The position numbers and the translations under genes are program-made. Under the pieces are notes generated by a model. The model made no database searches, was not told the origin of the DNA, and saw nothing but the letters and a program-made list of their open reading frames with translations. A DNA stretch of 64,000 nucleotides from Antedon mediterranea (lineage: Eukaryota; Animalia; Echinodermata): assembly GCF_964355755.1 (NCBI RefSeq), contig NC_092672.1, forward strand, positions 32,680,437 through 32,744,436. The letters are read 5' to 3'. Below are positions 133-63,396 of this stretch, piece after piece (the first letter of the stretch is position 1; each line of letters begins with the position of its first letter).

Positions 133-1731
133 TTACAGCAAAATACATGGGCATGTGGTGGAACGGTGTTGAGATTCTGTTCTTTGACTTCTTTGTGATT
201 CTGCTCTTTGGTGACTTCGATCTTCTTGACTCTGATCTGAATCTGAATCTAGATAACATGTCACATAATGGTTAGGTAATTGTCTTTGCTCTTGCAGTTG
301 TTGTATTTGAGCTTGCAGTTGTTGTTGGCTTTGAGCTTGCAGTTGTTGTTGTCTTTGCGCTTGCAGTTGTTGTTGTCTTTGCGCTTGCAGTTGTTGTTGT
401 CTTTGTTTTTGCAGTTGTTGTTGTCTTTGAGCTTGCATTTGTTGTTGTCTTTGAGCTTGCAGCTGTTGTTGTCTTTGAGCTTGCAATTGTTGTTGTCTTT
501 GAGCTTGCAGTTGTTGTTGTCTTTGAGCTTGCAATTGTTGTTGTCTTTGAGCTTGCAGTTGTTGTTGTCTTTGAGCTTGTAGTTTTTGTTGTCTTTGCGA
601 TTGCAGTTTTTCTCTCTGTGCTTGTAACTGTTGTTGTCTTTGCGCTTTCAATCTGGTTTCTCTTTGCGCTTCATAGTTTGTTGAAGCAATCGGTACACTA
701 TCATAGAATCGACCACTGTTTTCTGTTATTGTAACAACATGATGGTCAGATGTTTGCCTTCTAGATTTTGATATCGATGACTCATGTCCATGTCCTGTAT
801 AGTTTAAATTTCTCGCATCACTGCGTGATGAATAGTTTGCAGTAGGCATCTGTCCAATCTTTCGCCATAACATACATTTTATTCGTAGATTACGCTGTGA
901 ACTGAAGTCAAACAATTGGGACAACTCTTTTATCTGCCAAGATTGTTCTGCCATGGGCAGCTGATACGGATTATCCTCACCTCGATCAATAGTAGCAACC
1001 TCAACAAAGTTTGCCTGCCTAGCAACAGAACTAAAAAACTCTGTATTACCACCTTTTGAATTTTCCAAATAGAATAAGTAGGCACCTGATTTAGCATGGC
1101 TTAGTAAATCTTTAAGTGTATGTCGTGCATTTCGTAGTACTCGTATAGCTGATATAAACTTGCTACATGTGATCAGATCTGCTTTGGCTATGGCTTTAAG
1201 ATGTTCAGATGCAACACGTCTACTAATGGCTTCAAAATGAAGATAATCAGCTGATAACTGTGGTTGCTGATCTAGGCTTGCTAGTAAGCATTCAAAAGCA
1301 ACATCCCAGCTGGAATGTCTATCAAGAACAGTCGCAGTAATCCGAATATCTTCATAACCTCTACTGTTGAGAAACATCCTGACACCAAACAAGTCTGTAC
1401 CGGGTCCTCCGCCCAAAGCGCAGATATTAAGACAGCCGCGGATTGAAACTCTTTCTAATAGCATGTTTAAATGCATGTCAACGTAGAATTGCTGTAGACT
1501 GTCGAAGATACCATAGCATAAGGCGGGAAAATAGAGAAACACATAACAGGCTTGGTACGCAGGATCGTCAAAATCTACATCTCCGTCACCTTGATAAAGC
1601 GATGAGGGTTTATAACAGTCGACAAGTTCCTGCATGCATTCGGTCAGTTCGTCATGCCTGTCGGTGTACAGTAATATTCTATGGACCCCTTGCTTCATGA
1701 GAAGCAGAACAGGTTGTCCAAATCTTTCCAT
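133..1731 (-). CDS. Single-exon class I SAM-dependent methyltransferase-like protein (paralogue 1), Gln-rich repeat linker, C-terminal CaaX (CPCILL)
   Basis: 532-aa ORF; glycine-rich motif I LNICALGGGPGTDL, acidic residue in TVLDR, ADLITCSKFISA strand; strong similarity to ORFs 12884-14845 and 17728-18942; ends TCPCILL*. Confidence 0.85.
   Translation of the reverse strand: MERFGQPVLLLMKQGVHRILLYTDRHDELTECMQELVDCYKPSSLYQGDGDVDFDDPAYQACYVFLYFPALCYGIFDSLQQFYVDMHLNMLLERVSIRGCLNICALGGGPGTDLFGVRMFLNSRGYEDIRITATVLDRHSSWDVAFECLLASLDQQPQLSADYLHFEAISRRVASEHLKAIAKADLITCSKFISAIRVLRNARHTLKDLLSHAKSGAYLFYLENSKGGNTEFFSSVARQANFVEVATIDRGEDNPYQLPMAEQSWQIKELSQLFDFSSQRNLRIKCMLWRKIGQMPTANYSSRSDARNLNYTGHGHESSISKSRRQTSDHHVVTITENSGRFYDSVPIASTNYEAQRETRLKAQRQQQLQAQREKLQSQRQQKLQAQRQQQLQAQRQQQLQAQRQQQLQAQRQQQLQAQRQQQLQAQRQQQMQAQRQQQLQKQRQQQLQAQRQQQLQAQRQQQLQAQSQQQLQAQIQQLQEQRQLPNHYVTCYLDSDSDQSQEDRSHQRAESQRSQRTESQHRSTTCPCILL
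285..650 (-). repeat. Coding 24-bp tandem repeat (QAQRQQQL)n, about 14-15 units
   Basis: Repeated ttgagcttgcagttgttgttgtct on the + strand, inside the 133-1731 ORF. Confidence 0.95.
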
Positions 1732-1995
1732 CTGATGTGCTCCGGGTGAAAGTGTTAATATGAGTAAAATGAAATAACAGTAAATATAGTAGTAGATCTG
1801 GTAAGTCCAAATAACCCTGCAGCCTACACGAGACCTTTCGACCGAAGTAACTTTAGTAGCTGTAGGTCTATCTATAAAAATCTAAGATAATTTCGAACAG
1901 ATTGCGGGAACTGAGAACAAATTTCCTCAAGTAGAAGGCCTAGCGTCTATACAATTTCGATCATTAACTATGTTTTGCTACAGGACGCGAGAACT

Positions 1996-2005
1996 TGGAA
2001 TTTCC
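1996..2005 (+). promoter_or_regulatory. NF-kB-like site TGGAATTTCC upstream of methyltransferase paralogue 1
   Basis: Exact 10-mer about 265 bp upstream of the ATG; also present in the homologous upstream region of paralogue 3. Confidence 0.45.
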
Positions 2006-10430: not shown

Positions 10431-10454
10431 TTATGGATCCTGGTCGAGCACTGC

Positions 10455-12341: not shown

Positions 12342-12377
<36 letters not shown>

Positions 12378-12883: not shown

Positions 12884-14845
12884 TTAATCATTTAGTTTAA
12901 TTTTAGGTTGCTTCTGAGCGCGAACAATATAACATTTTGTATCAATATTTTTCATATCTTGAATAGCCTTCGATGCAGCGTCATGGTTTTCAAAGCTTAC
13001 AAAACCGAAGCCTCTGCTTTTTGAATTTTCATCACGCATCACTTTCGCACTGACGATTTTTCCATATTTACTAAACTTTTCAACCAGTTGATCATCTGTA
13101 ATATCAAGGTTCAAGTTCTTGACATAAACGTTTATGTAACTCTTCATTTTATCAACCTTCTCGGCAGCTCTGGCTTTACGACGAATCATATGACTTAGAT
13201 ATACTTGTTTTCCATTGTGCAACATGCCGTTGACTTTACTTATAGCCTTTGAGGCAGCATCTTCACTCTTAAATTGGATAAACCCATAGCCTTTAGACTC
13301 ATTGTTTTCATCACATAGAATCTTACAAGACAAAATTTTACCAAACACTGAAAATGCGTCATACAGAGCTTTGTTATCAATTGCCTTGTCCAGATTTGCA
13401 ATAAAGACGTCTCTCATCATGCCAGGTAAACTTGAATTACGTTTGGACCCCATGATATCTTTGCTATTACCAGTTGACGTGGTTACATGATGCGTTGTTT
13501 TGCGAGGAATCCAACCGAGATATACTTCTTTTCCATTGTGCAACATGCCATTGACTTTACGTATAGCCTTTGAGGCAGCCTCTTCTTTCTCAAATTGGAT
13601 AAACCCATAGCTATTAGACTCATTGTTTTCATCACACTGAATCTTACAAGATAACATGTTACCAAACTCTGAAAATATATCATTCAGAGCTTTGTTATCA
13701 ATTGCCTTGTCTAAGTTGTCAAAGTAGATATATCCTGTGTGGATAGAATTTCTCCAATCTCTAGGAGGATGTGATAGTGTAGGTGATGTGACCACATTTG
13801 TCTTCTGAGGAATGTTCTGGGTTTGGTTAGGTGGTATTATTTGTTTTGCACCCAGCAAATTGCGTGAATAATATAAAGCAGGATATATCGGACTTGTATA
13901 GCTGAAATGTCTCCCTTCACTGGATGGTGAAACAGCAGGTATTTGACCAGTCTTTCGCCATAACATACATTTTACTCGTAGATTACGCTGTGATCGAAAG
14001 TTAAAATGTTGGGACATGTCATTTATATACCAGGATTTTTCTGTTTTGGGTAACCGGTATGAATGTTCTTCATCTCGATCAATGCTGTAAACCTCAATAA
14101 ATTGTGCCTGTCGAGCAACAGAACTAAAAAAATCCGTATTACCTCCTTTTGAATTTTCCAAATACAAAATAAAGGCACCTGGTTTAGCTTGGTTTAGAAG
14201 TCTTCGTAGTGTCTGTTGTGAATTCGGTAGTGCCTTTATAGCCGATATAAACTTACTACATGTAATCAGATCTGCACTAGCTATGGCTTTTACATGATCA
14301 TGTGAAATATATCCTCTAATACCGACTTCAAAATGAAGATAGTCAACTGATACGCTTGATTTTCCACTTAGACTTGATAATAAACAATTAAATGCAATTT
14401 TCCAATTGAGATGTCGATCCAAAACCGTCGCACGAATCATTACTTCTGTATAACCGTTACTGTTGAGAAACATCTTAACACCAAACAAGTCCGTTCCCGG
14501 GCCTCCACCCAAAGCGCAGACATTTAGACAGCCACGACGTGAAATAATGTCCAATAGAGTGTTTAAATGACCGTGATCAAAACATTGTTGTAGACTGTCG
14601 GAAATACCATAACATAATACGGGAAAATATAGAAACACATAACAGGCTTGGTACGCAGGATCGTCAAAATCTACATCTCCGCCACCATCTTTCAGCGATG
14701 AGCCTTTATAAGCGTTACACAGTTGTTCAATGCAATTAGCCAGTTTATCACGACCTTTGTTGGAATACTTTAAAATTTCATGTACTCCATACTTTATAAG
14801 AATCAGAACAGGTTTGCCTAGAGGCCAAGTCTGGTAATTATCCAT
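12884..14845 (-). CDS. Single-exon methyltransferase-like protein (paralogue 2) fused to three PABP-like RRM domains
   Basis: 653-aa ORF; N-terminal LNVCALGGGPGTDL domain; two copies of NLDKAIDNKAL...FG.ILSCKI.CDENNES.GYGFIQF (PABPC RRM2-like), then NVYVKNL...SRGFGFVSFENHDAA (RRM3-like); no CaaX. Confidence 0.9.
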   Translation of the reverse strand: MDNYQTWPLGKPVLILIKYGVHEILKYSNKGRDKLANCIEQLCNAYKGSSLKDGGGDVDFDDPAYQACYVFLYFPVLCYGISDSLQQCFDHGHLNTLLDIISRRGCLNVCALGGGPGTDLFGVKMFLNSNGYTEVMIRATVLDRHLNWKIAFNCLLSSLSGKSSVSVDYLHFEVGIRGYISHDHVKAIASADLITCSKFISAIKALPNSQQTLRRLLNQAKPGAFILYLENSKGGNTDFFSSVARQAQFIEVYSIDRDEEHSYRLPKTEKSWYINDMSQHFNFRSQRNLRVKCMLWRKTGQIPAVSPSSEGRHFSYTSPIYPALYYSRNLLGAKQIIPPNQTQNIPQKTNVVTSPTLSHPPRDWRNSIHTGYIYFDNLDKAIDNKALNDIFSEFGNMLSCKIQCDENNESNSYGFIQFEKEEAASKAIRKVNGMLHNGKEVYLGWIPRKTTHHVTTSTGNSKDIMGSKRNSSLPGMMRDVFIANLDKAIDNKALYDAFSVFGKILSCKILCDENNESKGYGFIQFKSEDAASKAISKVNGMLHNGKQVYLSHMIRRKARAAEKVDKMKSYINVYVKNLNLDITDDQLVEKFSKYGKIVSAKVMRDENSKSRGFGFVSFENHDAASKAIQDMKNIDTKCYIVRAQKQPKIKLND

Positions 14846-15470
14846 TTTTCAGTGCTAGGCCTATGGGTTGCGTATGCAGTAGTAGTATAAGATGTATAAT
14901 ATGATGATAACTAAAATGTTTAGAAATTTCCAAACTTTAGTCATTACTATTTTTAGAAGTCATGACAAGTTAGCCATGCATGCGATCATAACAATGTTCA
15001 ATTCATTACAATATACCTACTTATATAACGCGATCGATACCGACAGAAAAATCGGCAGTAAACATTCAGAATTTAAGCTTAATCATTATAACAAGTTAAA
15101 AAGAATTGTAATTGACAATATGTGTTAGTTCTTAGAATATATTGGTCATGTGACTGTCCTTTTCAAAATGTAGGTACAGTATGTATTTAATCATGGATTC
15201 TTTAATCCATGATTTAATAAAGTGATTATGATTGGTTGATCTCTATTATAAGGAAAACAATACACACACAGTGTATGATAGCTACAGACTACCTGGGCCA
15301 TGGAAGGCTATCAAATAGCCTTGCCTGGACCAGTGTGAAATGTGTAATTTAACTCTTCCCTGCTTGACCATAGAAATCAAAACTGTGTAGAGGTGGGGGA
15401 GCGAGGAATACATGACGTAGTATGGACTGGCTAGACAAGATATTGATTTGAATTCAAATAGGACTACTTA

Positions 15471-17727: not shown

Positions 17728-18942
17728 TTACAGCAAAATACATGGGCATGTTGTTGCGGAACGCGACTGTTGAACTTCTGTTCTTCGCCGCTGTCGTGAT
17801 TCTGCTTCTTGGCGACCTCGCTCTTCTGGACGTTGGTTTCTTTGAGTTTCTGGATAACCTGTAATATACTCGTTAGATAATTGTCTATGTGCTTGCAGTT
17901 GTTGTTGTCTTAACGCTTCTAATCTGGCTTTTCTTTGAGCTTGATAGTTTGCTGAAGGAATTGTAATGGCATGATGGTCAGATGTTTGCCTTGCTGAATC
18001 ATGTCCAAATCTTGTATAGCTTCTCCCATCACTGCATGGTGAAACAGCGGGTATCTGACCAGTCTTTCGCCATAACATACATTTTACTCGTAGGTTACGC
18101 TGTGAACTGAAATTAAACAATTGGGACAACTCTTTTATCTGCCAAGATTGTTCTGCCCTGGGCAGCTGATACGGATTCTCCTCACCTCGATCAATGGTAG
18201 CAACCTCAACAAAGTTTGCCTGCCTAGCAACAGAACTAAAAAACTCTGTGTTTCCACCTTTTGAATTTTCCAAATAGAATATGTAGGCACCTGGTTTAGC
18301 ATGGCTTAGTAATTCTTTGAGTGCATGTCGTGAATTTGGTAGTGCCTTTATAGCAGATATAAACTTACTACATGTGATCAGATCTGCCTTAGCTATGGCT
18401 TTAAGATTTTCAGATGCAACATGTCTACTACTGGCTTCAAAATGAAGATAACCAGCTGATAATTGTGGTTGCTGATCTAGGCTTGCTAATAAGCATTCAA
18501 AAGCAACATCCCAGCTGGAATGTCTATCAAGAACAGTCGCAGTAATTTGAATATCTTTACAACCTCTACTGTTGAGAAACATCCTGACACCAAACAAGTC
18601 TGTTCCGGGTCCTCCACCCAAAGCGCAGACATTAAGACAGCGACGAAGGGAAACTCTTTCTAATAGCATGTTTAAATGCATGTCAAAGTAGAATTGTTGT
18701 AGACTGTCGAAGATACCATAGCATAAGGCGGGAAAATAGAGAAACACATAACAGGCTTGGTACGCAGGATCGTCAAAATCTACATCTCCGTCACCTTGAT
18801 AAAGCGATGAGGGTTTATAACAGTTGACAAGTTCCTGCATGCATTCGGCCATGGCCAGTTCGTCATGCCTGTCGGTGTACAGAAATATTCTATGGACCCC
18901 TTGCTTCATGAGAAGCAGAACAGGTTGTCCAAATCCTTCCAT
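17728..18942 (-). CDS. Single-exon methyltransferase-like protein (paralogue 3), C-terminal CaaX (CPCILL)
   Basis: 404-aa ORF closely similar to 133-1731 but without the Gln-repeat expansion; flanks are also homologous. Confidence 0.85.
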   Translation of the reverse strand: MEGFGQPVLLLMKQGVHRIFLYTDRHDELAMAECMQELVNCYKPSSLYQGDGDVDFDDPAYQACYVFLYFPALCYGIFDSLQQFYFDMHLNMLLERVSLRRCLNVCALGGGPGTDLFGVRMFLNSRGCKDIQITATVLDRHSSWDVAFECLLASLDQQPQLSAGYLHFEASSRHVASENLKAIAKADLITCSKFISAIKALPNSRHALKELLSHAKPGAYIFYLENSKGGNTEFFSSVARQANFVEVATIDRGEENPYQLPRAEQSWQIKELSQLFNFSSQRNLRVKCMLWRKTGQIPAVSPCSDGRSYTRFGHDSARQTSDHHAITIPSANYQAQRKARLEALRQQQLQAHRQLSNEYITGYPETQRNQRPEERGRQEAESRQRRRTEVQQSRSATTCPCILL

Positions 18943-19079: not shown

Positions 19080-19370
19080 CGTAAAATTTCCACTGACGTA
19101 ATATTTAGCTATTGCTACCTGTTAAGTCTAGATATAAAACCTCAGAGTCAGACCAGATTGTGGAATTTTCACATCAAGTAGCTGCAGGGCTTACAGGCCT
19201 ATCGTATATGAGAATAGTAGGCCTAGTCCGAACAACATGAACAATTTTTTGCTGCACGATGTGAGAAATTGGAATTTCCACTGAAGTAATTATCTTAAGA
19301 GTGAAATATTTTGTTATAGTAGCTATAAAATACATTTATTTACAGAACTCGAAACTGGAATTTCCATTTT
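19080..19370. promoter_or_regulatory. Cluster of NF-kB-like sites and a CRE-like motif upstream of methyltransferase paralogue 3
   Basis: TGGAATTTCC at 19270-19279 and 19356-19365; near matches at ~19083 (next to tgacgt) and 19161. Confidence 0.5.
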
Positions 19371-19563: not shown

Positions 19564-20574
19564 TTACGCAACATTTCAATGATATGAATTTTATGACGCG
19601 ATATGTGAATGAAATGCATCGATATGAATTGAATGGCGCGATATATGAATGAAATGTTTTGAATTGAATGCTTTGAATTGAATGTTTTGAATGAAAGGTT
19701 TTGAATGAAATGTTTTATTTTGAATAAATTGTTTTGAATGCAATGTTTTTAATGAAATGTTTTGAATGAAATGTTTTGAATGAAATGTTTTGAATTAAAT
19801 ATTTTAAATGAAATGTTTTGAATGAAATGTTTGAATTGAATTGAAAAGTCAAACTATTGGTGGCGTGGATGTCATTCCCGCTCGCGATTTTTTTCTCAAC
19901 CTCTTAGGCCTAAGCGTGGGTACCCTCATCTCCTTTCCACGCTGCCTAATTACAGAGAATCCTAACAGACCTGGGTTCGGAAATATGTATTCCAATGTTT
20001 CAGGTCTGTTAGGATTCTCTGTAAAGGATCCATATTGATGACAGCGTGGAAAGGAGATGAGGGTACCCAGCTTAGGAGGCCTAAGAGGTTAAAACAAAAT
20101 AGCGAGCGGGAATGACATACGCCGCCAATAGTTTGACTTTTCAATTCAATTCAAACATTTCATTCAAAACATTTCGTTCAAAACATTTCATTCAAAACAT
20201 TTTATTCAAAACATTCAAATCAAAACATTTCATTCAAAACATTTCATTCAAAACATTTCATTCAAAACATTCAATTCAAAGCATTCAATTCAAAACATTT
20301 CATTCATATATCGCGCCATTCAATTCATATCGATGCATTTCATTCACATATCGCGTCTAGTCTGGGTTCCAGACGGAGTTTTGTCTTAATATTAGTTAAA
20401 AGATAAATATTTTGGCACATATGGCGTTTCATACGTATACTACTTGATTTTGGATATTTTCAGACAAAAATCGCGGTCGAAATAAAAACAAATAAATTTG
20501 AAAAAAAGATAATACAGACTTGGAGCAAGTCTAATATCGCGTCATAAAATTCATATCATCAAAATGTTGCGTAA
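19564..20574. mobile_element. ~1-kb palindromic (foldback) element with internal GAATG/CATTC-type microsatellite arms
   Basis: ttacgcaacatttcaatgatatgaattttatgacgcgatat mirrored at 20534-20574; (gaatgaaatgtttt)n mirrored by (aaaacatttcattc)n; central 24-bp-stem hairpin at ~19950-20024. Confidence 0.85.
20358..20533. mobile_element. 176-bp insertion with TAG...CTA ends flanked by a 10-bp direct repeat
   Basis: atatcgcgtc at 20348-20357 and 20534-20543; interrupts only the right arm of the palindrome. Confidence 0.6.
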
Positions 20575-20587
20575 GGTGATTGATTTT

Positions 20588-20608
20588 GGAAATTCCCTTG
20601 TTACGTCA
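20588..20608 (-). promoter_or_regulatory. Consensus NF-kB site (GGGAATTTCC on minus strand) with adjacent CRE-like ttacgtca, upstream of the putative non-coding first exon of the ZAP-like gene
   Basis: ggaaattccc at 20588-20597; ttacgtca at 20601-20608; candidate donor aag/gtaggt at 20780/20781. Confidence 0.55.
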
Positions 20609-35370: not shown

Positions 35371-35702
35371 GAAGAGAAAACTGTTCAATGCTTCAATCGA
35401 ATGAACAATTTTTTACAGGCATGTTATAATAAGGATTATTTTTAACCAAGTGATTTTTCAATGAACACATGTGTAGGCTATAAAGGTTCAGTCGAATATC
35501 GCATTAACCTAACAGCAATAACATTTACAAATAGTATAGATTCCAAATATATTAGAAAATCATCTTGATGTTGAGTGGTACACAGACTTAACAAGAATTA
35601 TGCTTTATACACATTTTTTTGGGATATTGCAATTTGAGCAATTATAAAATAAATTGGTCCGAGTATATTATGATTTTATTTTTTCTTTGTTACTCTATAG
35701 CA

Positions 35703-46693: not shown

Positions 46694-49455
46694 ATGGCTG
46701 CATCAGGTACGATAGTTCTCCAATTTAAGATCTCAAATTTCACAAATCCTGAATTTCAGCATACATCCATTCAAAGAAATAACATATTAGTGAACTTATT
46801 AAAATATTTAAACAAATATTTATTTTGCCATTGTAAAATGTTCTTTTCTATTTAGTACTTCTATTTTAAAATTATTTATAAAAATATATTATTTGTCTTA
46901 ATTATATCAAACCGTTTATAACATTTAATCTGTTTTCGCTATATAGAAAGACTTGACTCATCTTTTAAACAAGGTTTAATAACTTTTTCAACTTGGTATG
47001 ACGAACGTTCGTACATAACAAAACTAAAAGTGTTGTACCAAGGTAAAATTGCAGAAACGGATTTATACAATGCCTCAACGACGATGGACTTGCTGAATCA
47101 TTTATCTGATTCTGGGGATCACAGTTCAACAGATTACACTATTCTTTGTGATACAATAAAGGCCACTAAACAGTTTGGTATTATTGAAGAACTTCGAGTT
47201 CACATTCCATCTTTCCCGAATGTAAGAGAAGAAATCATTATTTCCAAGTTCAGTCATTATCAACAAAACATTATGAATTTAGGAAATGAACTAATACAGG
47301 AAGAAGTGAAAAAAATTGACATTATGTTCAATAAACCTCCAAAGAATCATAAAGATGGATGGAATCTCCTTTTGGATTTACAGCACAAACAAATTATTTG
47401 TGAAGAAGAGAAAAAAATGGATACATTTATTAAGACCTTAGATAATCTTGGATTATCTCGCGCTGTAGCAGCTCTTACTCAAGGTACAATGTGATGAGTT
47501 TATTGGAACATGCTTACATTAAGCTCTGTCTACACTATCAAACTTATATCAAAAAATGTGATGTGCCCATACAGTATAAATATGATGACGTCATATCACT
47601 ACCATATTTAAGCATATCACTACCATATTTTGGCATATCACTACCATATTTTGGCATATCACTACCATATTTTGGCATATCACTACCATATTTTGGCATA
47701 TCACTACCATATTTTGGCATATCACTACCAAAATTTGGCATATCACTACCATATTTTGGCATATCACTACCATATTTTGGCATATCACTACCATATTTTG
47801 GCATATCACTACCATATTTAGGCATATCACTACCATATTTAGGCATATCACTACCATATTTTGGCATATCACTACCATATTTAGGCATATCACTACCATA
47901 TTTTGGCATATCACTACCATATTTTGGCATATCACTACCATATTTTGGCATATCACTACCATATTTAGGCATATCACTACCATATTTAGGCATATAACTA
48001 CCATATTTTGGCATATCACTACCATATTTAGGCATATCACTACCATATTTAGGCATATTACTACCATATTTAGGCATATCACTACCATATTTAGGCATAT
48101 CACTACCATATTTAGGCATATCACTGCCATATTTAGGCATATCACTACCATATTTTGGCATATCACTACCATATTTAGGCATATCACTACCATATTTAGG
48201 CATATCACTACCATATTTAGGCATATCACTACCATATTTAGGCATATCACTACCATATTTAGGCATATCACTACCATATTTAGGCATATCACTACCATAT
48301 TTAGGCATATCACTACCATATTTAGGCATATCACTACCATATTTAGGCATATCACTACCATATTTAGGCATATCACTACCATATTTAGGCATATCACTAC
48401 CATAGTTAAGCATATCCCTACCATATTTAGGCATATCACTACCATATTTAGGCATATCACTACCATATTTAGGCATATCACTACCATATTTAGGCATATC
48501 ACACTTTTTTTGTCAAACTAGTTTGATAGTGTAAACAGAGCTTAAGAGAAAGTTATTTGAAAGCAATTTTTTTGCTTTCTACATAGTTTTAAAAATATTA
48601 CTTAAATAATTTAAAACTTTCTATATATAATCAAACAATTGTAAATCATGTATGAAATTGGTTCTTATTAATCAGAAATCATCAAAATATTTTAAATATC
48701 ATTACAGATGTTCCAATATCCGTTACTATGAAACGTAAGTCTGACCATGAAGACAATCAAGCTCTAAAGAGAACCTGTCTTCCCGCTGTATCTACACAAA
48801 GAAATCTTAATGGAAAACTAGAATGTTTTCAAAGCATTATTGATGAAATTCTGCGATCTTTACATACTCTATCTAAAATTAGGCCATCATCACTAAAAGA
48901 TATTGATGACAATCTACAATCTTTACCACCTAATCTTTCTGATAATACACCATCTGTACTCGCAACTATCCTTCAAAATCTGAAGTCTTTACAAAAAAAC
49001 TATTAATGATAATCTACAAACATTACAATGTACTCTTAATATTGAAAATAGGCCTGTGGAAAGACGTATTTATAAAAAACTGCAATCATTAAAAACCTTT
49101 CTTAAAAAAAGGAAACAATGTTTGTCAAATTTCACACCAACATTTTGTAAATACATAGGGGAACTAAACACTATGACACAAGATGATGAGCAGAGATTAT
49201 TTAGGACAGTACAACTCCTGATTTCTTTCTGCCAAAGATATGGATGTGAATTAAGCAAGCTGGAACGCAAATGTATAGTTTTTACTTTTTCTGTACTGGA
49301 CCCCATTGCTCTGGTTAATCTGTGGAATATGTGTCAAACGGGAGAGCTTCTTATAAAAGTGTCAAAGGAGCATCAGAAGACATTTCAAGTGGAATGGACA
49401 ACAGAAATTGACAAAAACAAATATAAGGAAGCACTTTGTATGCTTGAACGAGAAG
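46694..49455 (+). pseudogene. 5' exons of the DED/TRADD-N-like gene (copy 2): 46694-46706, 46947-47483, 48708-~49455 (frameshifted, donor lost)
   Basis: Near-identical to 33006-35370; +1 in the A7 run at ~48993 gives a stop at 49006. Confidence 0.75.
47522..48542. mobile_element. MITE with 21-bp minisatellite expanded to ~43 units
   Basis: Same TIRs and insertion site as 33834-34456. Confidence 0.9.
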
Positions 49456-49787
49456 GAAGAGAAAACTGTTCAATGCTTCAATCGAATGAACAATTTTTTA
49501 CAGGCATGTTATAATAAGGATTATTTTGAACCAAGTGATTTTTCAATGAACACATGTGTAGGCTATAAAGGTTCAGTCGAATATCGCATTAACCTAACAG
49601 CAATAACATTTACAAATAGTATAGATTCCAAATATATTAGAAAATCATCTTGATGTTGAGTGGTACACAGACTTAACAAGAATTATGCTTTATACACATT
49701 TTTTTGGGATATTGCAATTTGAGCAATTATAAAATAAATTGGTCCGAGTATATTATGATTTTATTTTTTCTTTGTTACTCTATAGCA

Positions 49788-52700
49788 ATGACAGACAACA
49801 GAAAAAGACAACGTTATCGTGGTGGCCGTGGGCGGAGTGGTCAAACAAATAAACAAAATTGTTTAACAAGCAAATCGCATGTGATAGAGAAAGCTTTGAA
49901 GACAGTCTGTGAAAATGGTGGTAGTATTTCTTTTGAAGATCTTGAAGTAAAAGTTGGAAAGATTTCACCTGATCTAGAAAGTTTTGAATACATGATATCA
50001 CATCTTGATCATGAGTATTACCATTTTACCTTGATAGACCATGAAGATGGTAGTACTGATGTTCAAGTGTTTACTCAAGTTAAGATCTGCCCATCCTACC
50101 AAAAAAAATGGTGAATGCAGGAAAAGTGATACTTGCACAGATTTACACCTGTGTGGTTACTTTGCTACAGGTACGGTTTATAATTGGCAGTCTATTGTTT
50201 TGTTATTATTTTTTTTAATTTGTTATTTAAAAATAAGTATGATAACAGTTTTTAAAAATGTGTTAACAAAGCAAAAATGTGGACATTCAAAGAAACTTCC
50301 CCAGTAATTGTGTATTCAAAACTATTAACTAATTAAAGGCCTATTAATATGATCTGTAATCAAAACTTTGAAGTTTGAGACTTTAAAAAATGCAAAACAA
50401 CATGTCTAAACTGAACATTTCTGGTATTCTGTGGCAATGGGCCAGAACCACGTTCTTGGTAAGGAAAGAGCAACTAAATAAGTTATTTTATTAAAGGTTC
50501 TTTCTGCTGGTTTGGAAGAACTTGTAGCAAAACTCATCATTACCGATCAGATCACAACAAGCAGGTGTTAAGAAACTTTAAAATTGCCTTCTTGCCCCAA
50601 GAACAGGCAAGTGTGCTATTTCGATGGGCCTGGCCACATTTTACTGTTCCAGATTTCTGTGGAAAATACCGCAGTAATACAGGTTGTGGCAAGCATAATT
50701 GCAGATTTCTACATCTTTGCAAGTAAGAATAACTGATTTTTATAAATTCTTTAAAAGCTGAAATAAAGAAACTTTAAACCACCCAGCGATTGCTTGGATT
50801 GTGCTTCTTGTCTGTCTGTGGGGCCAGCTACATAGTGTTAGAACCTTAACACTACGTTCTTTTACCGAAACAGATATTGACCAATTTACAACAATTAAGT
50901 TGTACAGCAACTTTTCTCATGCCCTCTTTGCATTTCAGAAATCATGTTATGGAAACTTGCAAATTTGGAGCACGATGTAAGTTTGACCATGAAATTTACC
51001 ATGATGGATCTAACACCCAATTATTGAAGCATTTTGGAATTAGACTGGGTAACAGTTCTGATGATATAATCCGCCTGATTAAAGAGCGCCATGAAGGATT
51101 CTATTGTCCTGATGTTAAGGTGCTTCAGGGTGAATATGCAAAAACTGAGAGCGAATATAGTTTTGGGGAACGCAGCGGTGAGGAAGAAAGCCAATACAGT
51201 CCAGAAGAGGGCAGCGATGACGATAGAGAAAGCATTGTATCTAGTTCTACTTATGAGTTATATCAGAGAGCAGGTAAGTTAAGTATACTCTAAATTTACA
51301 AACAAAACAGCTAATTTGAGAGAAAAAAATGATTAATGAAGTGCAGATAATCAAATAATCATACAAAGATATCTCCCTTGTTAATTACAAATGATTCCCA
51401 AAATTTCGAGAGATTTCTTGTCATTTCCCACCAAATTCTCCTGATTGTTTTAGTACAAAAAGAACATCCTGAAATTCATAAATTTATCATTTAGGCTCTA
51501 CAAATAAAAAAAATGCGTTGCCATCACAATGTACGTCATCATATGTCATGCTTGGAGTGCCTGGCTTACTGTAGATGCTGATGCTAGAAATTTAAAATAG
51601 CACCATCTATTGGTAGTTGTATTTTTCTTTAAAATATTGCGTCCTCTATGGTAATATAAAAATCCTGTTTTTTGAATAGATAAATCATTAAATTTTAATT
51701 TTATTTCTAATTAGCTTCCAACACTAGACAAAGGCACAGACATCGCCATCGCGGTCGTCGACGTGATTATAATCGAAGAAAAAAAGAAGAAAGTCTGACA
51801 AGTAAATCTTCTGTGGCTGAGAGATCACTGCAAGTAGTCTGTCAAAATGGTGGTAGTATTTCAGCGCAAGACCTTAAAGAGAAAGTTGGAAAGGTTTCAC
51901 CCGATCTAGGAAGTTTGGAAAACATCATATCAGACCTCGATCATGAGAATTACCATTTTAAGTTCATAGACTATGAAGATGATAATGTTGATGTTACAGT
52001 GTACACCCAAGTTAATATCTGTCAAACATATCAAAAGAATGAATGCACAGATGACTGCACAGATTTACACCTGTGTGGTTACTTTGCTACAGGTACGGTA
52101 GTCTGCTTTAAGTTGCTGTTGTTGCTAACGTTTTCCGTCTTCCGACATTACGCTTTCCACAATTTGTTTCCATTTTTTTCTGTTTATGGCAGGATGGTTT
52201 GTTATTGTGTTAGTGTCTACTAGTCCTTGTAAGTCTTTCTTTATTTGATTCATCCAGTTATTTCTTGGTCTTCCTATGGGTCGTTTTACTTTCGATCCTG
52301 TTAGTTTCCTTCATTGTTTGTTTGATTGGTAGTCTGCTTTAACCCACCTATTAAATGCAGTATCAGAAGTACCCTCTATGTAGAGGGGTAAAACCCCATC
52401 TATAGCTTCAATAGAATTTTTCTGGAGAAAGACTCCAAAACCCTTGTTCTTCTCATCTGCAATCTGAAGTTTGTGTATCTTTGGAAACTTTACACAGAAA
52501 GTATTACTGAAATATTTTAATCCTTTGCTATTTCAATATAATACAGTAATACTCAAGGAGAGACCACTCAATTTTCAGAGCAATTTTTTTCCCAGTATCA
52601 TATGAATATTCGGTAATACAGTGTCTCATATGTATCATATGCCTGTATCATGTAAGGTTAGGTTAATGGTTAGGTTATATGGTCTATAATATAAGGCAAT

Positions 52701-55700
52701 ACATGTGAAACATGATAATTATGAATGATAATTAATAATTATTTATTATTTAACTTTGTTGTAAATTGTTTGTTATTTTTGTAAATGTATTGTTATTATA
52801 AGGTTCTTACTGCTGGTTTGGACGGCAAAGCTGTAGAAAAAGTCATGATTTTCGATCGGATTACAACAACCAGGTTTTAAAAAACTTTGGCATTGCCTTT
52901 CTGAGACATAATCAGTTGAAAACTCTACTTCGATGGAAGTGTCCACAGTTTACAGTACCAGAATTATGTGGACAATACAGAAGAAACATGGGCTGTGGCA
53001 AGGAACACTGTAGGTTTCTACATATATGCAGGTAAGAATATTTCACATGTATAATAGTTGCAACCTCTGTAAAGTAAAAATTATTTATTTTATGATAAAA
53101 TTAGTAAAATAATAAAAAGTGGTTCAGGTTCCTGGGCCGGATTGCCTCCAGTTGCCTCTAAATTTGGTAAAGATCCGTCTTTTAGTTTTTGACATTATCA
53201 CACACACACAAATGAGGTAAATGAGGTAATAAAGTAATTATAACAAAACAAATATTTCATTTGCATTGAACTTTCAAGCATCATGGTCAATCTTCAAGTG
53301 CTAGTTATGAGAATAAGAATCATAAAACTGCATAATAACAAATTCTGTTTCCAGAAGTGTTGTGATGGAAACTTGCAGCTATGGAAAAAGATGCAAGTTT
53401 GCCCATGACATCTATCAAATAGAGTCTAATGTGGAATTACTGAATAAGTTTCAAATTAGCTATAGCTCGGATGATACCATCCGCTTGATCAAAGAGAGCG
53501 CCATCAGGGAATCTATCGACCTGATGTTGAGGTCTTGCAGAGTGACGGAGAAGATAATCAATGTAGTCAGGAAGAGTGCATCGATGAAGAAAGTCCAGAA
53601 ATCAGTCCACCTATCTCTCCTATATTAATTACTCATAGGGATTTCGTTTCTCAAGAATACTCAAGAAGAGATACTTTTATTCATAAATCGGAACAAATGG
53701 TTAGACAAACAAGTTCAAAACATAATTTTGCTCCATTTAAATCAAACGTCCAAGATATGCCTAAGAGTTCTTCGGTAATGATTGCAGCTAAGCAATCAAC
53801 ACAATATGTTGCAAATAATGAGATACAACAGAAGTCATACCAAGTTCAACCACTACCTAGTACCAAAGGAGAAAGAATTACACAACATGCACCATACCAA
53901 AAACAGGACAATTTCCAAGATATACCAAAGATGTCTTCGGTAATGACTGCAGTTAAACCATTGCAATATGACATTGAAACTAATCTGTTAGAAGAAAATT
54001 CAGATATCCAGTCTGCATTCGTTTCTACAAGTCAAGTTCAACCACTATCTAGTAGTAGAAGCAACGAAGAAAGAAACACATACACATACACATACAATCT
54101 AAGTCCAAAAAGTCCTTCATCAAACCTTAATTTCCAAGAAATGCCAACAAATTTGTCAGTTATGGCTGCAGCTAAACCATCAATATCACATATTGCAACT
54201 AATGTTTTAGAAATGAAGGTAGATTCTGCAAAGCAAGTTCAGTCACTACCTAGTAAAAAAAAAAAGAAATGGGTATTGCCAGATTCACAAAAAGTCCAAT
54301 ACAAGTGAAAATGAGAGAAATTTGCAAGGACTACCTGAAAGGAAACTGCAGTAGTGGCAGTATGTGTCATAAAATGCATTGTGATCTTCCTTATCAATGG
54401 CAAATGTCCATTAATGATAGGTGGGTTGACTTTGATGATAGATCAAATCTGAAAGTGGAAGAAGGATTTTGTGGAGAAATCACTGATTGTCCTCAGTTTC
54501 CTGTCAATACCACCACTACCAAGTTTTGGACTCTTTATTGCTTAAGCCTTACACTTTATCAAACTAGTTGACAAAAAAAGTGTGATGTACCCAAATATGG
54601 TAGTGATATGCCCAAACATTTTTTTGTCACATAAAGTTTGATAGTGTAGACAGAGTTTTGGAAGTTTAAATTATGAGATTGTACAATCGAAGCAGCTGGT
54701 ATTGCAAAGAAAAGTGTAGTTCAAGTTTTGTTTTTATATCTGCAAAATACATTCCATAACAAATTTATTGCTTGCTGACTACAATCACTAAGTTCATCCT
54801 GTTTGATCTACTTTAGTTATAAGAATTATATGCAGTTGTATTTTTTGTATTTGAATCTGAATTTTGAAATGAATTAATGGCTCTTACTCTTCTTTTTAAA
54901 CAAGGGATGTGTGTTTTGATAGCATGCTTGCATCTGATGGGTTGGACCTTATTTTAGTTGAGCGACTGGAAGTCAAAGGTGATGAAGATGTTTCAGATGC
55001 CTATCTGGTATCTCCGTGGTCTTGGTATTGGCAGGATGAATGTGGAAAGTGGATTGAATATAGTGAACAGGTAGGCTTGTTTAAATATTCCATCTTCTCA
55101 ACACTCCTCAACCAACAAAAAGAGAGCAATAGGCAAGTAGCTACAGTGTAGTACAGGGAAGAATAGAGCAGGAGCAGAGAAGGATTGCTATTCATGCTCC
55201 AGCATGCAGTACAGTATTTTATATATTAGAACATGATTAAAACAAGATTAATTTCCATTTTTAATTAGAATACCAAGCAGAGTGCACGATCAGACAAAGA
55301 AAGTTCAGATTTTGAAAGTTTGTTTAAAGCATATAAAAATGAAAATGGAAGTTTCAGCGTTAAATTCAAGGCTGGTAATCAAAACTACACTTTGGACTTC
55401 TCTGCCATGAGCCAAACCAATGATAGATACCATACCAGAAAACCCGTCTGTCGAAGGCCAGTCAGACAGATAAAACCAAAGGATGTTGAGAAGTACAGAA
55501 AAGAAAAACCTTGGTAAAAAGACTAAAATGAATTATTTTTATTCATATTTCTGAAGTCAGAATTCATTATTTCTCCTAGATCATATATTTACTACCACAT
55601 ACTGCTATTTTCCACTCCATAGCGAGTACTCTCCCTCATCACACCCCACTGCAGTAGTTTAAAATCTTCCCAGTACAAATTCTGGTTATTTTGATCCAGT

Positions 55701-56791
55701 ACTCCCACCCAACCCATAAACTTGTTATTGTACACAATAACAAACATTTACTTTCCAAGTACTCAACCTGTAGCCAAGTAGTTTACTCTTGCCAGGAAAG
55801 TTCATTTCACTCTTTCCTGCTGTTACCTTTTTTGTTATATTATATACTTAGGTTACACACTCATACTTTCCCAAGGACTTGGGATACAACCATCAAAACA
55901 AAAACACATCGACTTGTAAAAGTGACTAAGGAAGCAAATAACGAAGAATACAGAGAAATCTCCAAATTATTTAAAAGAACTCTTCCAGATGGAGCAATAA
56001 CTCGACTTGAACGAGTCCAGAATGAGATCTGCTGGGAAGCATTTGCACGGTAAATATTGAAATTGTATATTATATATATTATATGACTACTTTAAATATT
56101 GTGTCTATTGACCCTAAACTCTTTTTCATCAATTTATTTTTGTCTCACAAGGCAAAGAGAAACCATGATGAAGAAAAACTCTCGTAGAAAAGTTGAAGAG
56201 CTCCAACTGTTTCATGGAACAATGCAGGATAAAGTTGATGATATCTGTCGTGATAATTTTGACTTTCGCTTGAGCGGGACACGAGTTGGGCATGTTTATG
56301 GACAAGGAGCTTACTTCGCAAAGTCAGCAAAGTATTCCAATGATTACGCTGAAAAAGACAGTGTTGGTAGGAAGAGGATGTTTGTTGCAAGAATTCTTGT
56401 TGGTAGCTACACAGTTGGCACAAAAGAGATGCACCGGCCACCGTTTAAAGACCCGGCAGATAAGTCAAAGGGGATGTATGACTCTTGTGTTGATGATGTC
56501 GCTAATCCAAGTATTTTTGTGGTGTTTGATAACCATCAGGTTTATCCAGAATATCTGATTACATAAACCATTTCATCGCATAGTACAACATTATCTAGGG
56601 CATCAAACATTCAACCATCTGGTAGTGCGACCTCCTACCAGTCAGCAAGAACTGTAGCAATGAATTCAGCAAACTGGTATAACCCACCTACCAGTCGTTC
56701 TTCAAGTTCAAACCAACCATCTTACAATAGTCCAAGTAGTTCGCCAAGGAGGGACAGCAAAGCAGATAATAATAAATGCATTTGCATGTAA
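49788..56791 (+). pseudogene. PARP12/ZAP-like copy 3, multiply inactivated
   Basis: Same exon-1 A8 frameshift (50101-50108); +2 at ~53495; +1 at ~54260; exon-6 donor lost (~54520); TAT>TAA at 56564-56566; vestigial CICM* at 56777-56791. Confidence 0.85.
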
Positions 56792-58704: not shown

Positions 58705-61700
58705 ATGGCTGCATCAGGTACGATAGTTCTCCAATTTAAGATCTCAAATTTCACAAATCTTGAATTTCAGCATACATCCATTCAAAGAAATAACATATTA
58801 GTGAACTTATTAAAATATTTAAACAAATATTTATTTTGCCATTGTAAAATGTTCTTTTCTATTTAGTACTTCTATTTTAAAATCATTTATAAAAATATAT
58901 TATTTGTCTTAATTATCAAACCGTTTATAACATTTAATCTGTTTTCGCTATATAGAAGGACTTAACCCATCTTTTAAACGAGTTTTAATAACCTTTTCAA
59001 CTTGGTATGACGAACGTTCGCTTATAACGAAACTAAAAGTATTGTATCAAGGTAAAATTGCAGAAACGGACTTACACAATGCCTCAACGACGATGGACTT
59101 GCTGAATCAGTTAACTGATTCTGGAGATCTCAGTTCAACAGATTACACTATTCTTTGTGACACAATAAAGGCCACTAAACAGTTTGGTATTATTCAAAAA
59201 CTTCGAGTTCACATTCCATCTTTTCCTAATGTAAGAGAAGAAATCATTATTTCCAAGTTCAGTCATCATCAACAAAACATTATGAATTTAGGAAATGAAC
59301 TAATACAGGAAGAAGTGACAAAAATTGACAATATGTTCAATAATCCTCCAAAGAATCACCAAGATGGATGGAATCTCCTTTTGGATTTACAGCATAAACA
59401 AATTATTTGTGAAGAAGAAGAGGAAAAAATGGATGGATTTATTAAGACCTTAGGTGATCTTGGATTATCTCGCGCTGTAGCAGCTCTTACTAAAGGTACA
59501 ATGTGATGAATTTATTGGAACATGCTTACATTATAGACAGTTATTTGAATGCAATATTTTTGCTGTTTACATAGTTTTTAAAATATTACTTAAATAATTT
59601 AAAACCGTCTATATATAATTTCAAACAATTGTAAATCATGTATGAAAATGGTTCTTATTAATCATCAAAATATTTTAAATATCATTACAGGTGTTCAAAT
59701 ATCCGTTACTATGAAACGTAAGTCTGACCATGAAGATCATCAAGCTCCAAAAAGAACCCGTGTTCCCGCTGTATCTACACAAAGAAATCTTAATGGAAAA
59801 CTGGAATGTTTTCAAAGCATTATTGATGAAATTCTGCGATCTTTACAATATACTCTATCTGAAATTAGGCCATCGTTACTAAACGATATTTATGAAAATC
59901 TACAATCCTTACCACCTAGTCTTTCTGATAATACACCATCTGTACTTGGAACTATCGTTCAAAATCTGAAGTCTTTACAAAACACTATTAATGAAAATCT
60001 ACAATCATTACAAAGGACTCCTAATATTGAAAACAGGCCCGTGGAAAGACGTATTTATAAAAAACTGCAATCATTACGAAATTTTCTTAAAAAAAGGAAA
60101 CAATGTTTGTCAAATTTCACACCAACATTTTGTAAATACATAGGGGAACTAAACACTATGACTCAAGATGATGAACAGATATTATTTAGGATAGTTCAAC
60201 TCCTGATTTCTTTCTGCCAAGGATATGGATGTGAATTAAGCAAGCTGGAACGCAAATGTATAGTTTTTACTTTTTCTGTACTGGACCCCATTGCTCTGGC
60301 TAATCTATGGAATATGTATCAAACGGGAGAGCTTCTTACAAAGCTATCAGAGATACTTATAGCGTCAAAGGAGCATCAGGAGACATTTCAAGTGGAATGG
60401 ACAACAGAAATTGACAAAAACAAATACAAACAAGCACTTTGTATGCTTGAAGAAGAAGGTGAGACAAATTTGCAATGCTTCAATCGAATGAACAAATATA
60501 TTTTACAGGCATGTTATAATAAAGAATTTTACGAGTTATTTTTCAACACATGTGTAGGCTATAAAGGTTCAGTCGAATATCGCATTAGCCTAACAGCAAT
60601 AACATTTACAAATAGTATAGATTCCAAATATATTAGAAAATCATCTTGATGTTGCGTTGTGCACATATTCAACCTCTTGTCATAAGTTGTTTACCACAAA
60701 TTTATGATACACATCAACGCATGTAGACAAAATAATATACATACAAAACAACCTATAGTAACGCATGTGTTTGTCTACTTGGCATGTGCTGGTAATGCTA
60801 TTTTGTTTGAAACCAAGTAAGATAAAACATTAGAAATTGATAAATTACAATACAGTCTGAGTTTTAGTATTTTATAACAATGGTATTTTATATTTTCTTT
60901 GTTTCTACAGTCCAAGATATGCCTTATTCACTAATGACTGCAGCTAAACCATCAACACAATATGCTGCAAGTAGTCGGATACAACGGAAATCATACCAAG
61001 TTCAACCACTACCTAGTACCAAAGAAGAAAGGATTACACAACCTGCACCATACCAGAAACAAGAGAATGTCCAATATATACTAATGAAGTCTTCAGTAAT
61101 GACTGCAGCTAAACAATCAACACGATATGGTGCAAGTAATCGGACACAACGATACATCTCCCTCGACGAGGGGGGTGAATTCCCCGACGAGGTGGAAGTC
61201 ATCCCCTTCGACGAGGGGGGTGAATTCCCCGACGAGGAGAAGATTGAAGAAATAGATTCAAAGGAAGTTCAGTCACAACCTAGTAACGAAAAAGAACAAC
61301 CTGGGTAAAAAACTAATTGTCTTAATTATTTTTTTATATTGTATTCATAATAATTAACGTGTGTAGATCATACGCAGTTATTATTTATAACAACCCACCC
61401 ATGACGGGTACCTTAACTCAAAGCACTCTAGTAGTTTAAAACCTTCCCAGTACAAATTGTGGTTATGTTATCCAATATTCTCAACCCATAACCATCCGTA
61501 TGGATGCGTGCAATAACAATGAATTTACTTCAACCTGTCGCTCAGTATTTTACTCTTGCCATGGAAGCTCATATCAGGGAGAAGCGTGTAATTTTACTCT
61601 TTCCTGCTGTTACCTTACAGTGTTATGTTATATACTTTATAGGTTACACACTTATACTCTCCCAAGGACTTGGGATACAACCATCAAAACAACGAAAACA

Positions 61701-63396
61701 CATGAACTTGTAAGAGTGACTGATAGAAAAGAATACAAAGAAATATCTGCACTATTTAAAAGAACTCTTCCAGATGGAGCAATAATTCGAATTGAACGAG
61801 TTGAAAATGAGAAATGCCGGAAAGCATTTGCATGGTAAATATTTATAATAATTATTATATGAACAGTTTAATATACTGGTGTATATTTGATGTCGACACT
61901 GATTCCTCCTTCATTTACTTTACATTTTTTAAATATTTTCTCAGGTCATCTCTTCGACTCATTTTAACTTTTCTGAGGCATGCACTAATGCAGCTAATTT
62001 GTTTCAGTTGAGTTTCGGGTCGAAATGTGATGTTTTCCTTAGTTTTTCGAATAAATTCATGATTTTTTTTTATCTCACAAGGCAAAAATGCACGATGATA
62101 GGAAACTCTAACAAAGAGATTGAAGAGCTCCAACTGTTTCATGGAACAATGCAGGATAGAGTTGAAGATATCTGTCGTGATAATTTGGATTTTCGCTTGA
62201 GCGGTTCACGAGTTGGTAATATTTATGGACAAGGAGCTTACTTCGCAAAGTCAGCAAAGTATTCCAATGATTATGCTGGAACAGACAGTGTTGGTAGGAA
62301 GAGGATGTTTGTTGCAAGAGTTCTTGTTGGTAGCTACACAGTTGGCACAAAAGAGATGCCCCGGCCACCGTTTAAAGACCCGGCAGATAAGTCAAAGGGG
62401 ATGTATGACTCTTGTGTTGATGATGTAGCTAATCCAAGTATTTTTGTAGTGTTTAATAACAACCAGTTTTATCCAGAATATCTGATTACATATACCATTT
62501 CATCGCATAATAAAACATTATCTAGAGCATCAACCATTTCATCTAGATCACAGCGGCGGCGGCAGGATCCTCCCGACGCGGAGGCTGAATTCCCCAACGA
62601 GGGGGCTGAATTCTCCGACAAGGGGGCTGAATTCTCCGACGTGGAGGCTGAATTCCCCGACAAGGGGACTATGCGAGCATCACTAGATTGGGGGCCAGAG
62701 AGGCTGCAGTGGCGCCAGAATCTTCCCGACGAGGGGGATGAATTCCCCGACGAGGGGGATGAATTCCCCGACGAGGGGGCTATGCGAGCATCACTAGATT
62801 GGGGGAAAGGGAGGCAGCGGTGGCGCCAAGATCTTTCCGACGAGGTGTCTGAATACTCCGACAAGGGAGCTGAATTCCCCGACGAGGGGGCTATGCGAGC
62901 ATCACTAGATTGGGGGTCAGGGAGCCAGCGGTGGCGCCAAGATCTTTCCGACGAGGTGTCTGAATACTCCGACGAGGGAGCTGAATTCCCCGACGAGGGG
63001 GCTATGCGAGAATCACTAGATTGGGAGAAAAGGAGGCAGCGGTGGCACCTTCCCGACGAGGGGGCTGAATTCTCTGACGAGGAAGCTGAATTCCCCGACG
63101 AGGGGGCTATGCGAACATCACTAGATTTGGGGCCACAGAAACAGCGATTGCGCCAGGCTCTTCCAGACGCGGGGGCTGAATTCCCCGACGAGGGGGCTAT
63201 GCGAGCATCACTAGATTGGGGGCCAGAGAGACAGAGATTGCGCCGGGCTATTCCCGACGCGGGTGCTGAATTCCCCGACGTGGAGGCTATGCGAGCATCA
63301 CTAGATTGGGGTCAGGGAAGCGGTCAAGGGCCAGAAGGCGAAGGACCCCGGGTCCAGAAGAAGGCGAAGCCCCCGGAAGCATGCATTCTAGCGTAA
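58705..63396 (+). CDS. Predicted ~1073-aa protein: tandem DED-like domains, TRADD-N-like domain, PARP (H-Y-I), acidic repeats, CaaX (CILA). Exons 58705-58717, 58956-59495, 59691-60458, 60911-61304, 61643-61834, 62082-63396
   Basis: All five introns GT-AG and phase-compatible; total 3222 nt with no stops; death-fold-like helices (LKVLYQGKI...DLLNQLTDSGDLS; GWNLLLDLQHKQII); CIVFTF...LANLWNMYQTGELL; LFHGT, GAYFA, PSIFVVF. Confidence 0.78.
62570..63315 (+). repeat. GC-rich coding repeat: 21-bp unit gaattccccgacgagggggct (EFPDEGA) nested in higher-order units containing MRASLDWG
   Basis: Visible periodicity; same unit also at ~61160-61240. Confidence 0.92.

Follow-up and report, generated by a model that had tools for sequence, protein, structure and literature searches.

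Which function, if any, connects two unrelated enzyme families that lie side by side in the genome of a feather star and mostly end in a predicted prenylation signal? The window, i.e. the whole stretch of 64,000 nucleotides of Antedon mediterranea that was analysed (contig NC_092672.1, positions 32,680,437 to 32,744,436), has a G+C content of 35%, contains spliceosomal introns and encodes proteins whose nearest relatives come from the feather stars Anneissia japonica and Antedon mediterranea. It is a young tandem array of PARP12-like genes beside three copies of an uncharacterised methyltransferase with a Bmt6/METTL17 fold. The methyltransferase genes (A, C and B) all lie on the minus strand and consist of one exon each, and the array occupies the plus strand in units of about 13-14 kb, whose longest blocks are 91-98% alike. 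As an earlier note on this DNA had observed, four of the five open genes end in a CaaX box in the gene models, namely CPCILL in A and B, CICM in PARP copy 1 and CILA in a PARP fused to death effector domains (DEDs). These four ends are not independent of each other. A and B are duplicates with 89% identity in the domain, and the idea of four independent CaaX gains was dropped for that reason.

The reading favoured here, with a probability of roughly 0.45, is that the methyltransferase is an inducible immune effector which methylates nitrogen atoms on the pairing face of RNA or DNA bases (of the m3U, m1A or m3C type) and is predicted to be held at membranes by prenylation. Three separate hints point to such a substrate: the link of family and fold to PF11312/Bmt6, the AlkB or DUF1848 partners of the bacterial relatives, and the fusion of copy C to RRMs of the poly(A)-binding protein (PABP) type. 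An immune-type role is supported indirectly, by the bacterial gene neighbourhoods and by kB-like sites upstream of all three copies.

Family and fold of the methyltransferases

With B as query 326 representatives were obtained at E<=0.001, and the analyses use the best 150 of these 326. The glycines that bind S-adenosylmethionine (SAM) and the acidic residue following strand 2 vary little or not at all among 112 aligned sequences. The structure model of B (pLDDT 94.8) shows a class I fold, and the SAM-binding motif is intact. Its three best matches among solved structures are chains from assembly intermediates of the mitoribosome small subunit, which we take to be METTL17/Rsm22, with Z 19.0 (root-mean-square deviation 3.3, 243 residues aligned), 18.9 (4.3, 248) and 15.1 (4.5, 256); the window proteins are 9-11% identical to these chains.

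PF11312 is matched at E<=0.001 by 78 of the 112 aligned members, and some relatives (P0124, P0150, P0169 and L070) pass the cut-off of that family. According to PMC5307852 the family is linked to EC 2.1.1.312, the 25S rRNA U2843-N3 methyltransferase. Yeast Bmt6 makes m3U2843 in 25S rRNA, a mark that blocks Watson-Crick pairing, according to PMC3950682. The window proteins share with Bmt6/PF11312 and METTL17/Rsm22 the class I fold with its N-terminal helical part, the family-wide PF11312 matches and best folds of Z 15-19. They differ in that they score below the Pfam cut-off and have been amplified into paralogues that carry CaaX or RRM tails, and in that a fixed partner gene accompanies their bacterial kin.

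A sequence search of the PDB with the methyltransferase gave only METTL6 (E 0.002), the NCBIfam scan only RRM models and one weak portal match, and the PADLOC scan of the family only weak matches to C3a159 and mad2, with no model for the bacterial pair. The UG25 model was not matched by the family. A search of viral folds returned generic methyltransferases, the best being a Marseillevirus protein (BFVD A0A481YR48, TM 0.54, E 2e-8). No description of the family or of its AlkB/DUF1848 pairing was found in the open-licence literature.

The RRMs of copy C match TIGR01628 in NCBIfam with E 9e-88, and yeast and human PABP structures are matched as well. This part of the gene (12884-13750) derives from PABP, lacks introns and may have been captured from a retrocopy; one RRM in it is duplicated (13197-13390 and 13518-13711, 90% alike).

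An unrooted FastTree tree was calculated from 192 rows (the best 150, A, B and 40 of 79 GTDB proteins); no direction of transfer is claimed from it. One animal-type clade (SH 95) holds 96 of the rows, including all 19 for which an animal name was looked up, and the GTDB rows fall into the other half. Of the 93 non-window rows in the animal-type clade 12 end in CaaX, and no row outside of it does, the bacterial clade included. This compares with 0.6% of internal 4-mers, a binomial probability of 6e-13, which ignores relatedness. The CaaX-bearing rows come from at least three subclades and are of crinoid, starfish and chelicerate origin. A relative from Anneissia in the same clade ends in CQCCILL, and CaaX ends are also present in relatives from starfish, horseshoe crab, spiders and scorpion, so that the signal is conserved and not a matter of local chance. 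Three further animal-type rows have a terminal hydrophobic helix, and Cys-rich tails are seen in about five. The tree also contains lineage-specific sets of paralogues in crinoids, starfish and spiders, which fit the expectation for genes in conflict.

The ratio of nonsynonymous to synonymous substitutions (dN/dS), named as a check in the earlier note, could be determined for the methyltransferase domain. Pairwise values are 0.37-0.47 (0.37 for A versus B), which indicates purifying selection on the domain sequence.

Partner genes of the bacterial relatives

A motif from the narrower of two bacterial alignments was used to scan GTDB, where it revealed 107 relatives; the broader alignment gave no searchable motif. 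All counts refer to the best 80 of these 107, which cover several phyla. An AlkB-family gene lies within 600 bp of the methyltransferase gene in 41 loci, 22 times downstream on the same strand and 19 times divergent, and a gene for a DUF1848 protein adjoins it at the same distance in 37. One of the two partners is thus present in 78 of 80 loci, and both never occur together. In the remaining two loci neither partner is present; one of these loci lies at a contig edge. The same pairing is seen in four of four loci on viral contigs.

The one AlkB representative that was compared is closest to human ALKBH3/ALKBH2 (E 6e-43). ALKBH2 and ALKBH3 remove m1A and m3C. A CxxxCxxC motif is found in five of the six DUF1848 open reading frames (ORFs) inspected, the sixth being a fragment, and DUF1848 is taken to be a radical-SAM-like protein; no solved relative of it was found by sequence search. 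The simplest reading of such unrelated partners that exclude each other, one being a demethylase of the repair class, is that both erase a harmful methyl mark. In combination with the link to Bmt6 and the fusion to RRMs, they suggest that the enzyme methylates nitrogen atoms of bases in RNA or single-stranded DNA.

The same partners also allow a constructive interpretation. The protein could be a SAM-binding module for RNA binding or sensing, similar to METTL17, or it could carry out the first step of a two-step base modification, in which the AlkB or radical-SAM-like protein tailors the methyl group and does not erase it. The nearest folds are ribosome assembly factors, and two unrelated partners could well be different tailoring enzymes. 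The AlkB protein compared is, however, of the ALKBH2/3 (repair) type and not of the ALKBH8 type, the SAM motif is invariant across the 112 sequences, and no partner gene is present in the window. We therefore regard this interpretation as clearly unlikely.

The neighbourhoods were compared with PADLOC models using 165 cluster representatives of 286 near neighbours, of which 92 were compared at a threshold of E 1e-8 and 73 at 1e-25. At AlkB loci the matches comprise DarT/DarG, Dsr1, BrxL, OloA and type II restriction-modification systems, and at DUF1848 loci AbiD, AbiU, RmrA, ShosA, HmaA-like and PDC models. Most neighbours were not matched, and some matches are generic kinases or ATPases. Type I restriction genes are found at 11 of the 37 DUF1848 loci. 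In nine loci (L010, L017, L024, L032, L041, L043, L044, L049 and L051) the methyltransferase and DUF1848 genes are flanked by type I hsd genes or immediately precede them, and some of these loci have a serine recombinase ahead. In a Pseudanabaena locus of the AlkB type (L020) a DarT/DarG pair follows directly behind the methyltransferase (8967-10683).

DarTG is a writer/eraser pair of bacterial defence. A methyltransferase-reverse transcriptase with DUF1848, UG25, is reported among defence-associated reverse transcriptases in 10.1101/2021.12.02.470933. The loci described here resemble both in placing a predicted nucleic-acid-modifying enzyme beside a candidate eraser, often among defence genes, and UG25 also pairs a methyltransferase domain with DUF1848. 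They differ in that the reaction would be methylation instead of ADP-ribosylation, in their two interchangeable partners, and in that they have neither a reverse transcriptase nor a PADLOC model.

According to the favoured reading the substrate would be nucleic acid, and the methyl mark would block base pairing, translation or copying. In bacteria the AlkB or DUF1848 partner would erase the mark, as in a DarTG-like writer/eraser pair; an AlkB or DUF1848 gene is not found in the window. The animal genes may be induced by Rel/NF-kB. Their CILL ends would be geranylgeranylated and the CICM and CILA ends of the PARPs farnesylated, and the lipid anchor would confine the animal methyltransferase to membranes, as it does ZAP-L. 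OAS1 p46 and the GBPs are further prenylated immune effectors.

Candidate promoter sites and the case against an immune role

Candidate sites were counted with the kB-like consensus GGRNWYYCC. Between B and PARP copy 1 (18943-21469) four sites are observed and 0.36 expected, and none of 200 first-order resamples reached four; over the whole window 14 sites compare with 9.6 expected (P ~0.07). Each of the six sites of the pattern GGAAWTYYC in the window precedes A, B, C or PARP copy 1 by 78-882 bp. The excess fits inducible promoters and makes the sites candidates for Rel. The site GGAATTTCC at A is likely a duplicated promoter copy which it shares with B. The earlier note had described shared kB-like sites in this head-to-head region. 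Their enrichment stands, but they are not plainly shared, because the two groups of sites flank a foldback element. A shared regulation of methyltransferases and PARP in this lineage is possible.

A number of findings weigh against an immune effector that methylates bases. The animal and bacterial members form separate clades with about 20-25% identity, and function may not carry over from one to the other. The window proteins stay under the gathering score of PF11312 (B 19.8-20.7 versus 26 bits; A without any Pfam match at E 0.1), and among solved structures a ribosome assembly factor matches best, followed by small-molecule methyltransferases (halide methyltransferase, Z 14.7). A CaaX box is lacking in 81 of the 93 animal-type rows as well as in copy C. 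On the bacterial side the 19 divergent AlkB loci are not operonic, type I restriction genes occur at none of the 41 AlkB loci, and the cyanobacterial ones lie among housekeeping-looking genes. The count of defence neighbours was made without a random-gene control. The pattern GGAAWTYYC was picked after inspection of the sequence, and the kB-like sites of A and B look homologous. Finally, the pairwise dN/dS values of the domain give no sign of overall positive selection.

Some of these points would also suit methyltransferases without any immune role, which act on a membrane-associated protein, a lipid or a small molecule or set a housekeeping RNA mark, and which came to lie beside the PARP genes by chance. 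The small-molecule enzymes next in the fold ranking, the purifying selection and the lack of a common scaffold in Anneissia (see below) agree with this, and CaaX boxes are found on many non-immune proteins. On the other hand, such a role would leave the partner genes at 78 of 80 bacterial loci, the PABP-RRM fusion and the kB-like sites at all three copies unexpected, and the lineage-specific sets of paralogues fit genes in conflict. A non-immune role is therefore considered unlikely, if less so than a sensing or tailoring function.

Table 1. Genes, gene remnants and candidate sites of the window in order of position.
Feature	Position	Strand	Remarks
Methyltransferase A	133..1731	-	532 aa; PF11312-like domain, Gln-rich repeat tail, CPCILL (CaaX, predicted geranylgeranyl type)
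kB-like site GGAATTTCC	1997..2005		266 bp upstream of A; flanking sequence similar to that of a site ahead of B
Methyltransferase C	12884..14845	-	653 aa, single exon; fused to three PABP-type RRMs; no CaaX
kB-like site GGAAATTTC	14923..14931	-	78 bp upstream of C
Methyltransferase B	17728..18942	-	404 aa; class I Rossmann fold with N-terminal helices, CPCILL end
Three kB-like sites	19162..19365		220-415 bp upstream of B; 3 observed versus 0.03 expected in 18943-19560
Foldback (self-inverted) repeat element	19595..20357		about 760 bp; separates the three B-side kB-like sites from the two PARP-side sites
Full 10-mers GGGAATTTCC (minus strand, 20588) and GGATTTCCC (21150)	20588..21158		upstream of PARP copy 1
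PARP12-like copy 1	21470..29794	+	10 GT-AG exons, 1379 aa, no internal stop; two tandem winged-helix/CCCH modules, WWE, PARP domain, CICM
Broken tandem-DED/TRADD-N-like module, unit 2	33006..35371	+	frameshifted, last donor site lost; precedes PARP copy 2
PARP12-like copy 2	35703..43126	+	+1 indel in exon 1 near 36016; CICM end
Broken tandem-DED/TRADD-N-like module, unit 3	46694..49456	+	precedes PARP copy 3
PARP12-like copy 3, pseudogene	49788..56791	+	exon-1 indel as in copy 2, further exon-6 indels, stop at 56564; CICM end
DED-DED/TRADD-N-like/PARP chimera (predicted)	58705..63396	+	6 GT-AG exons, 1073 aa; acidic 111-bp repeat tail, CILA

The PARP genes and their linkage to the methyltransferases

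The array genes had been labelled ZAP-like, a name which should be changed to PARP12-like. The catalytic domain is most similar to human PARP12 (PDB 2pqf, 131.5 bits, E 2e-37; ZAP 83.9 bits), and a residue alignment to 2pqf shows that the PARP12 motifs FHGT, GxGxYFA and PSIF are kept. The catalytic residues of active PARPs are known as the H, Y, I triad. At the end of the ZAP finger C-K-Y-S-H is replaced by C-R-Q-T-H in module 1 and by C-R-K-S-H in module 2, which turns the K107/Y108 pair into R-Q and R-K. In PMC8102003 K107 and Y108 are given as residues of the CpG pocket and Y108 is named as a CpG contact. An assignment as ZAP orthologue was dropped, since Y108 of the CpG pocket is absent and the PARP domain has active-type PARP12 motifs. 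By its motifs the gene would encode an active mono-ADP-ribosyltransferase of a known kind.

Human PARP12 (2pqf) and the fish PARP12-like protein si:ch73-252i11.1 have the winged helix, CCCH fingers, WWE and PARP domain and the PARP12 motifs in common with the window gene, and its CaaX box is seen in many fish and frog relatives. The difference lies in the N-terminal zinc-finger module, which is present twice as a whole in the window gene and once in Anneissia P0009, and in the missing CaaX of human PARP12 (PMC8568172). The duplication of this ZAP-type module of three exons took place within the gene (21470-25960). With ZAP-L/PARP13 the gene shares a homologous zinc-finger domain (E 3e-5 to mouse ZAP) and the C-terminal CaaX. 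It lacks Y108 and retains active PARP12 catalytic motifs, whereas the PARP domain of ZAP is inactive and ZAP-L needs its CaaX for activity, according to PMC8568172.

A CaaX end of the pattern C-x-[AVILMCT]-[SAQMLFCTVI] is found in 83 of 117 PARP relatives, most of them from fish and frogs, and also in Anneissia P0009 (CICM) and an oyster protein (P0120). The box is not diagnostic of ZAP, because these 83 PARP12-like relatives share it. The sequences P0015 to P0121 that carry it belong to teleosts, Polypterus, lungfish, frogs and the oyster. The CaaX gain on ZAP has been placed in tetrapods in PMC12204182. This origin is called into question by PARP12-like proteins that have the box in two crinoids, an oyster, Polypterus and many teleosts, and the sequences suggest that the CaaX box of ZAP/PARP12-like proteins is older than tetrapods or was gained more than once. 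Three Anneissia proteins (P0011, P0012 and P0013) possess a PARP12-type catalytic domain followed by a long hydrophobic tail in place of CaaX. These tails are likely multi-pass membrane segments and thus a second route to membranes in crinoids.

A gene of the CICM PARP12-like type is spliced, as contigs of two runs from two studies (X5, presumed to be RNA, and X9) span the last PARP intron with letters of this type; the copy is not distinguished by them. That all array copies are functional was rejected due to the frameshifts in copies 2 and 3. The array is a mosaic (25835-56068), in which copy 2 is nearest to copy 3 in the 5' part (96.7%, 8.1 kb) and nearest to copy 1 in the 3' part (97.9%, 5.9 kb). 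Such a pattern may be left by unequal crossing-over or alternatively by haplotype mis-assembly.

The predicted DED-PARP comprises in this order a DED module, part of a linker exon, the PARP domain, the acidic repeat tail and CILA; zinc fingers and WWE are absent. Its DED exon reaches 25.6 bits with Pfam DED, below the cut-off of 35.9. The model (pLDDT 67.5, one good model of five) has DED assemblies of caspase-8, cFLIP and FADD as top Foldseek rows, with a best E of 0.02, and the following exon resembles TRADD-like_N by its features (0.93; the family is on 54% of the matching cluster). As in the tandem-DED proteins caspase-8 and cFLIP two death-fold bundles are predicted in one exon and the top rows are DED assemblies. 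Here, by contrast, a TRADD-N-like domain and a PARP take the place of the caspase, and the likeness comes from a moderate model with the E value given above.

All four relatives of the DED exon (P0282-P0285) are from Antedon mediterranea, and none of them has a PARP domain. In these proteins the DED-like module is joined to a B-box, ZU5 or repeat-like C-terminus, two of them carrying B-box or ZU5, and it appears to be a promiscuous immune module of crinoids. The catalytic exon of the DED-PARP shares about 91% DNA identity with the array copies, and the gene is young for that reason. It is likely a recent local chimera of this death-fold module and a local PARP. For the predicted splice from DED to PARP (60458 to 60911) four runs over 58600-62560 gave no joining contig, which speaks neither for nor against it. 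An acceptor-like site lies immediately in front of PARP exon 1 in units 2 and 3, about 300 bp beyond the end of the DED module and in a compatible phase. A longer DED-zinc finger-PARP form may therefore once have existed.

The second intron of the broken DED modules contains a 21-bp minisatellite (33905-34416 with 24 copies, 47592-48502 with 43 copies). Similar short arrays are located at 27123, 31579, 40459 and 44943, some within palindromic elements (31508-31668, 44872-45231). Between A and C two inverted 1.7-kb arms with 97% identity (8279-12135) include broken ORFs at 9041-9709 (-), 9858-10355 (-) and 10681-11460 (+). The longest has no meaningful Pfam match; presumably these ORFs derive from an Academ-like transposon protein of the XPG/FEN1 type.

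The earlier note had gone further and proposed that the methyltransferases act with ZAP-like sensors and the DED-PARP at a membrane-targeted antiviral locus. Taken to its end, this would be one conserved system whose parts cooperate. The head-to-head layout with kB-like sites, the four CaaX ends and the combination of death-fold and TRADD-N-like domains with a PARP are in line with it. The expected adjacency is not seen in Anneissia, where the four methyltransferases are located on scaffolds of 1,885,617 (two of them), 1,310,045 and 1,915,095 bases and the six PARP matches on six other scaffolds, so that none of the 4 x 6 combinations shares a scaffold in this fragmented assembly, with match lists that may be incomplete. 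Spiders, a scorpion and the horseshoe crab have CaaX methyltransferases, while ZAP/PARP12 are reported as absent from arthropods in PMC8102003; hence the two families do not need each other. Moreover, the PARP lacks Y108 of ZAP, the DED module sits on other domains in its four Antedon relatives, and the DED-PARP is a young fusion without a counterpart among these four. A single cooperating system is accordingly the least probable of the explanations and was not upheld. In this lineage the methyltransferases and the PARP12-like gene would share their regulation as neighbours without being obligate partners.

More tentatively, and with doubt, the base-methylating effector can be seen as part of an undescribed family of bacteria and invertebrates that disables foreign RNA or DNA by methylation of the pairing face. 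Its bacterial members would have an AlkB or radical-SAM-like eraser, and those of echinoderms and chelicerates a prenyl anchor at the membranes of viral replication, and in the present crinoid a kB-type control in common with a CaaX PARP12. If this is true, the two-gene bacterial loci, which make the idea testable in E. coli, would give DUF1848 a first role, and enzymatic alkylation damage to nucleic acids would be added to ADP-ribosylation, deamination and chain termination as a form of immune chemistry found from bacteria to animals.

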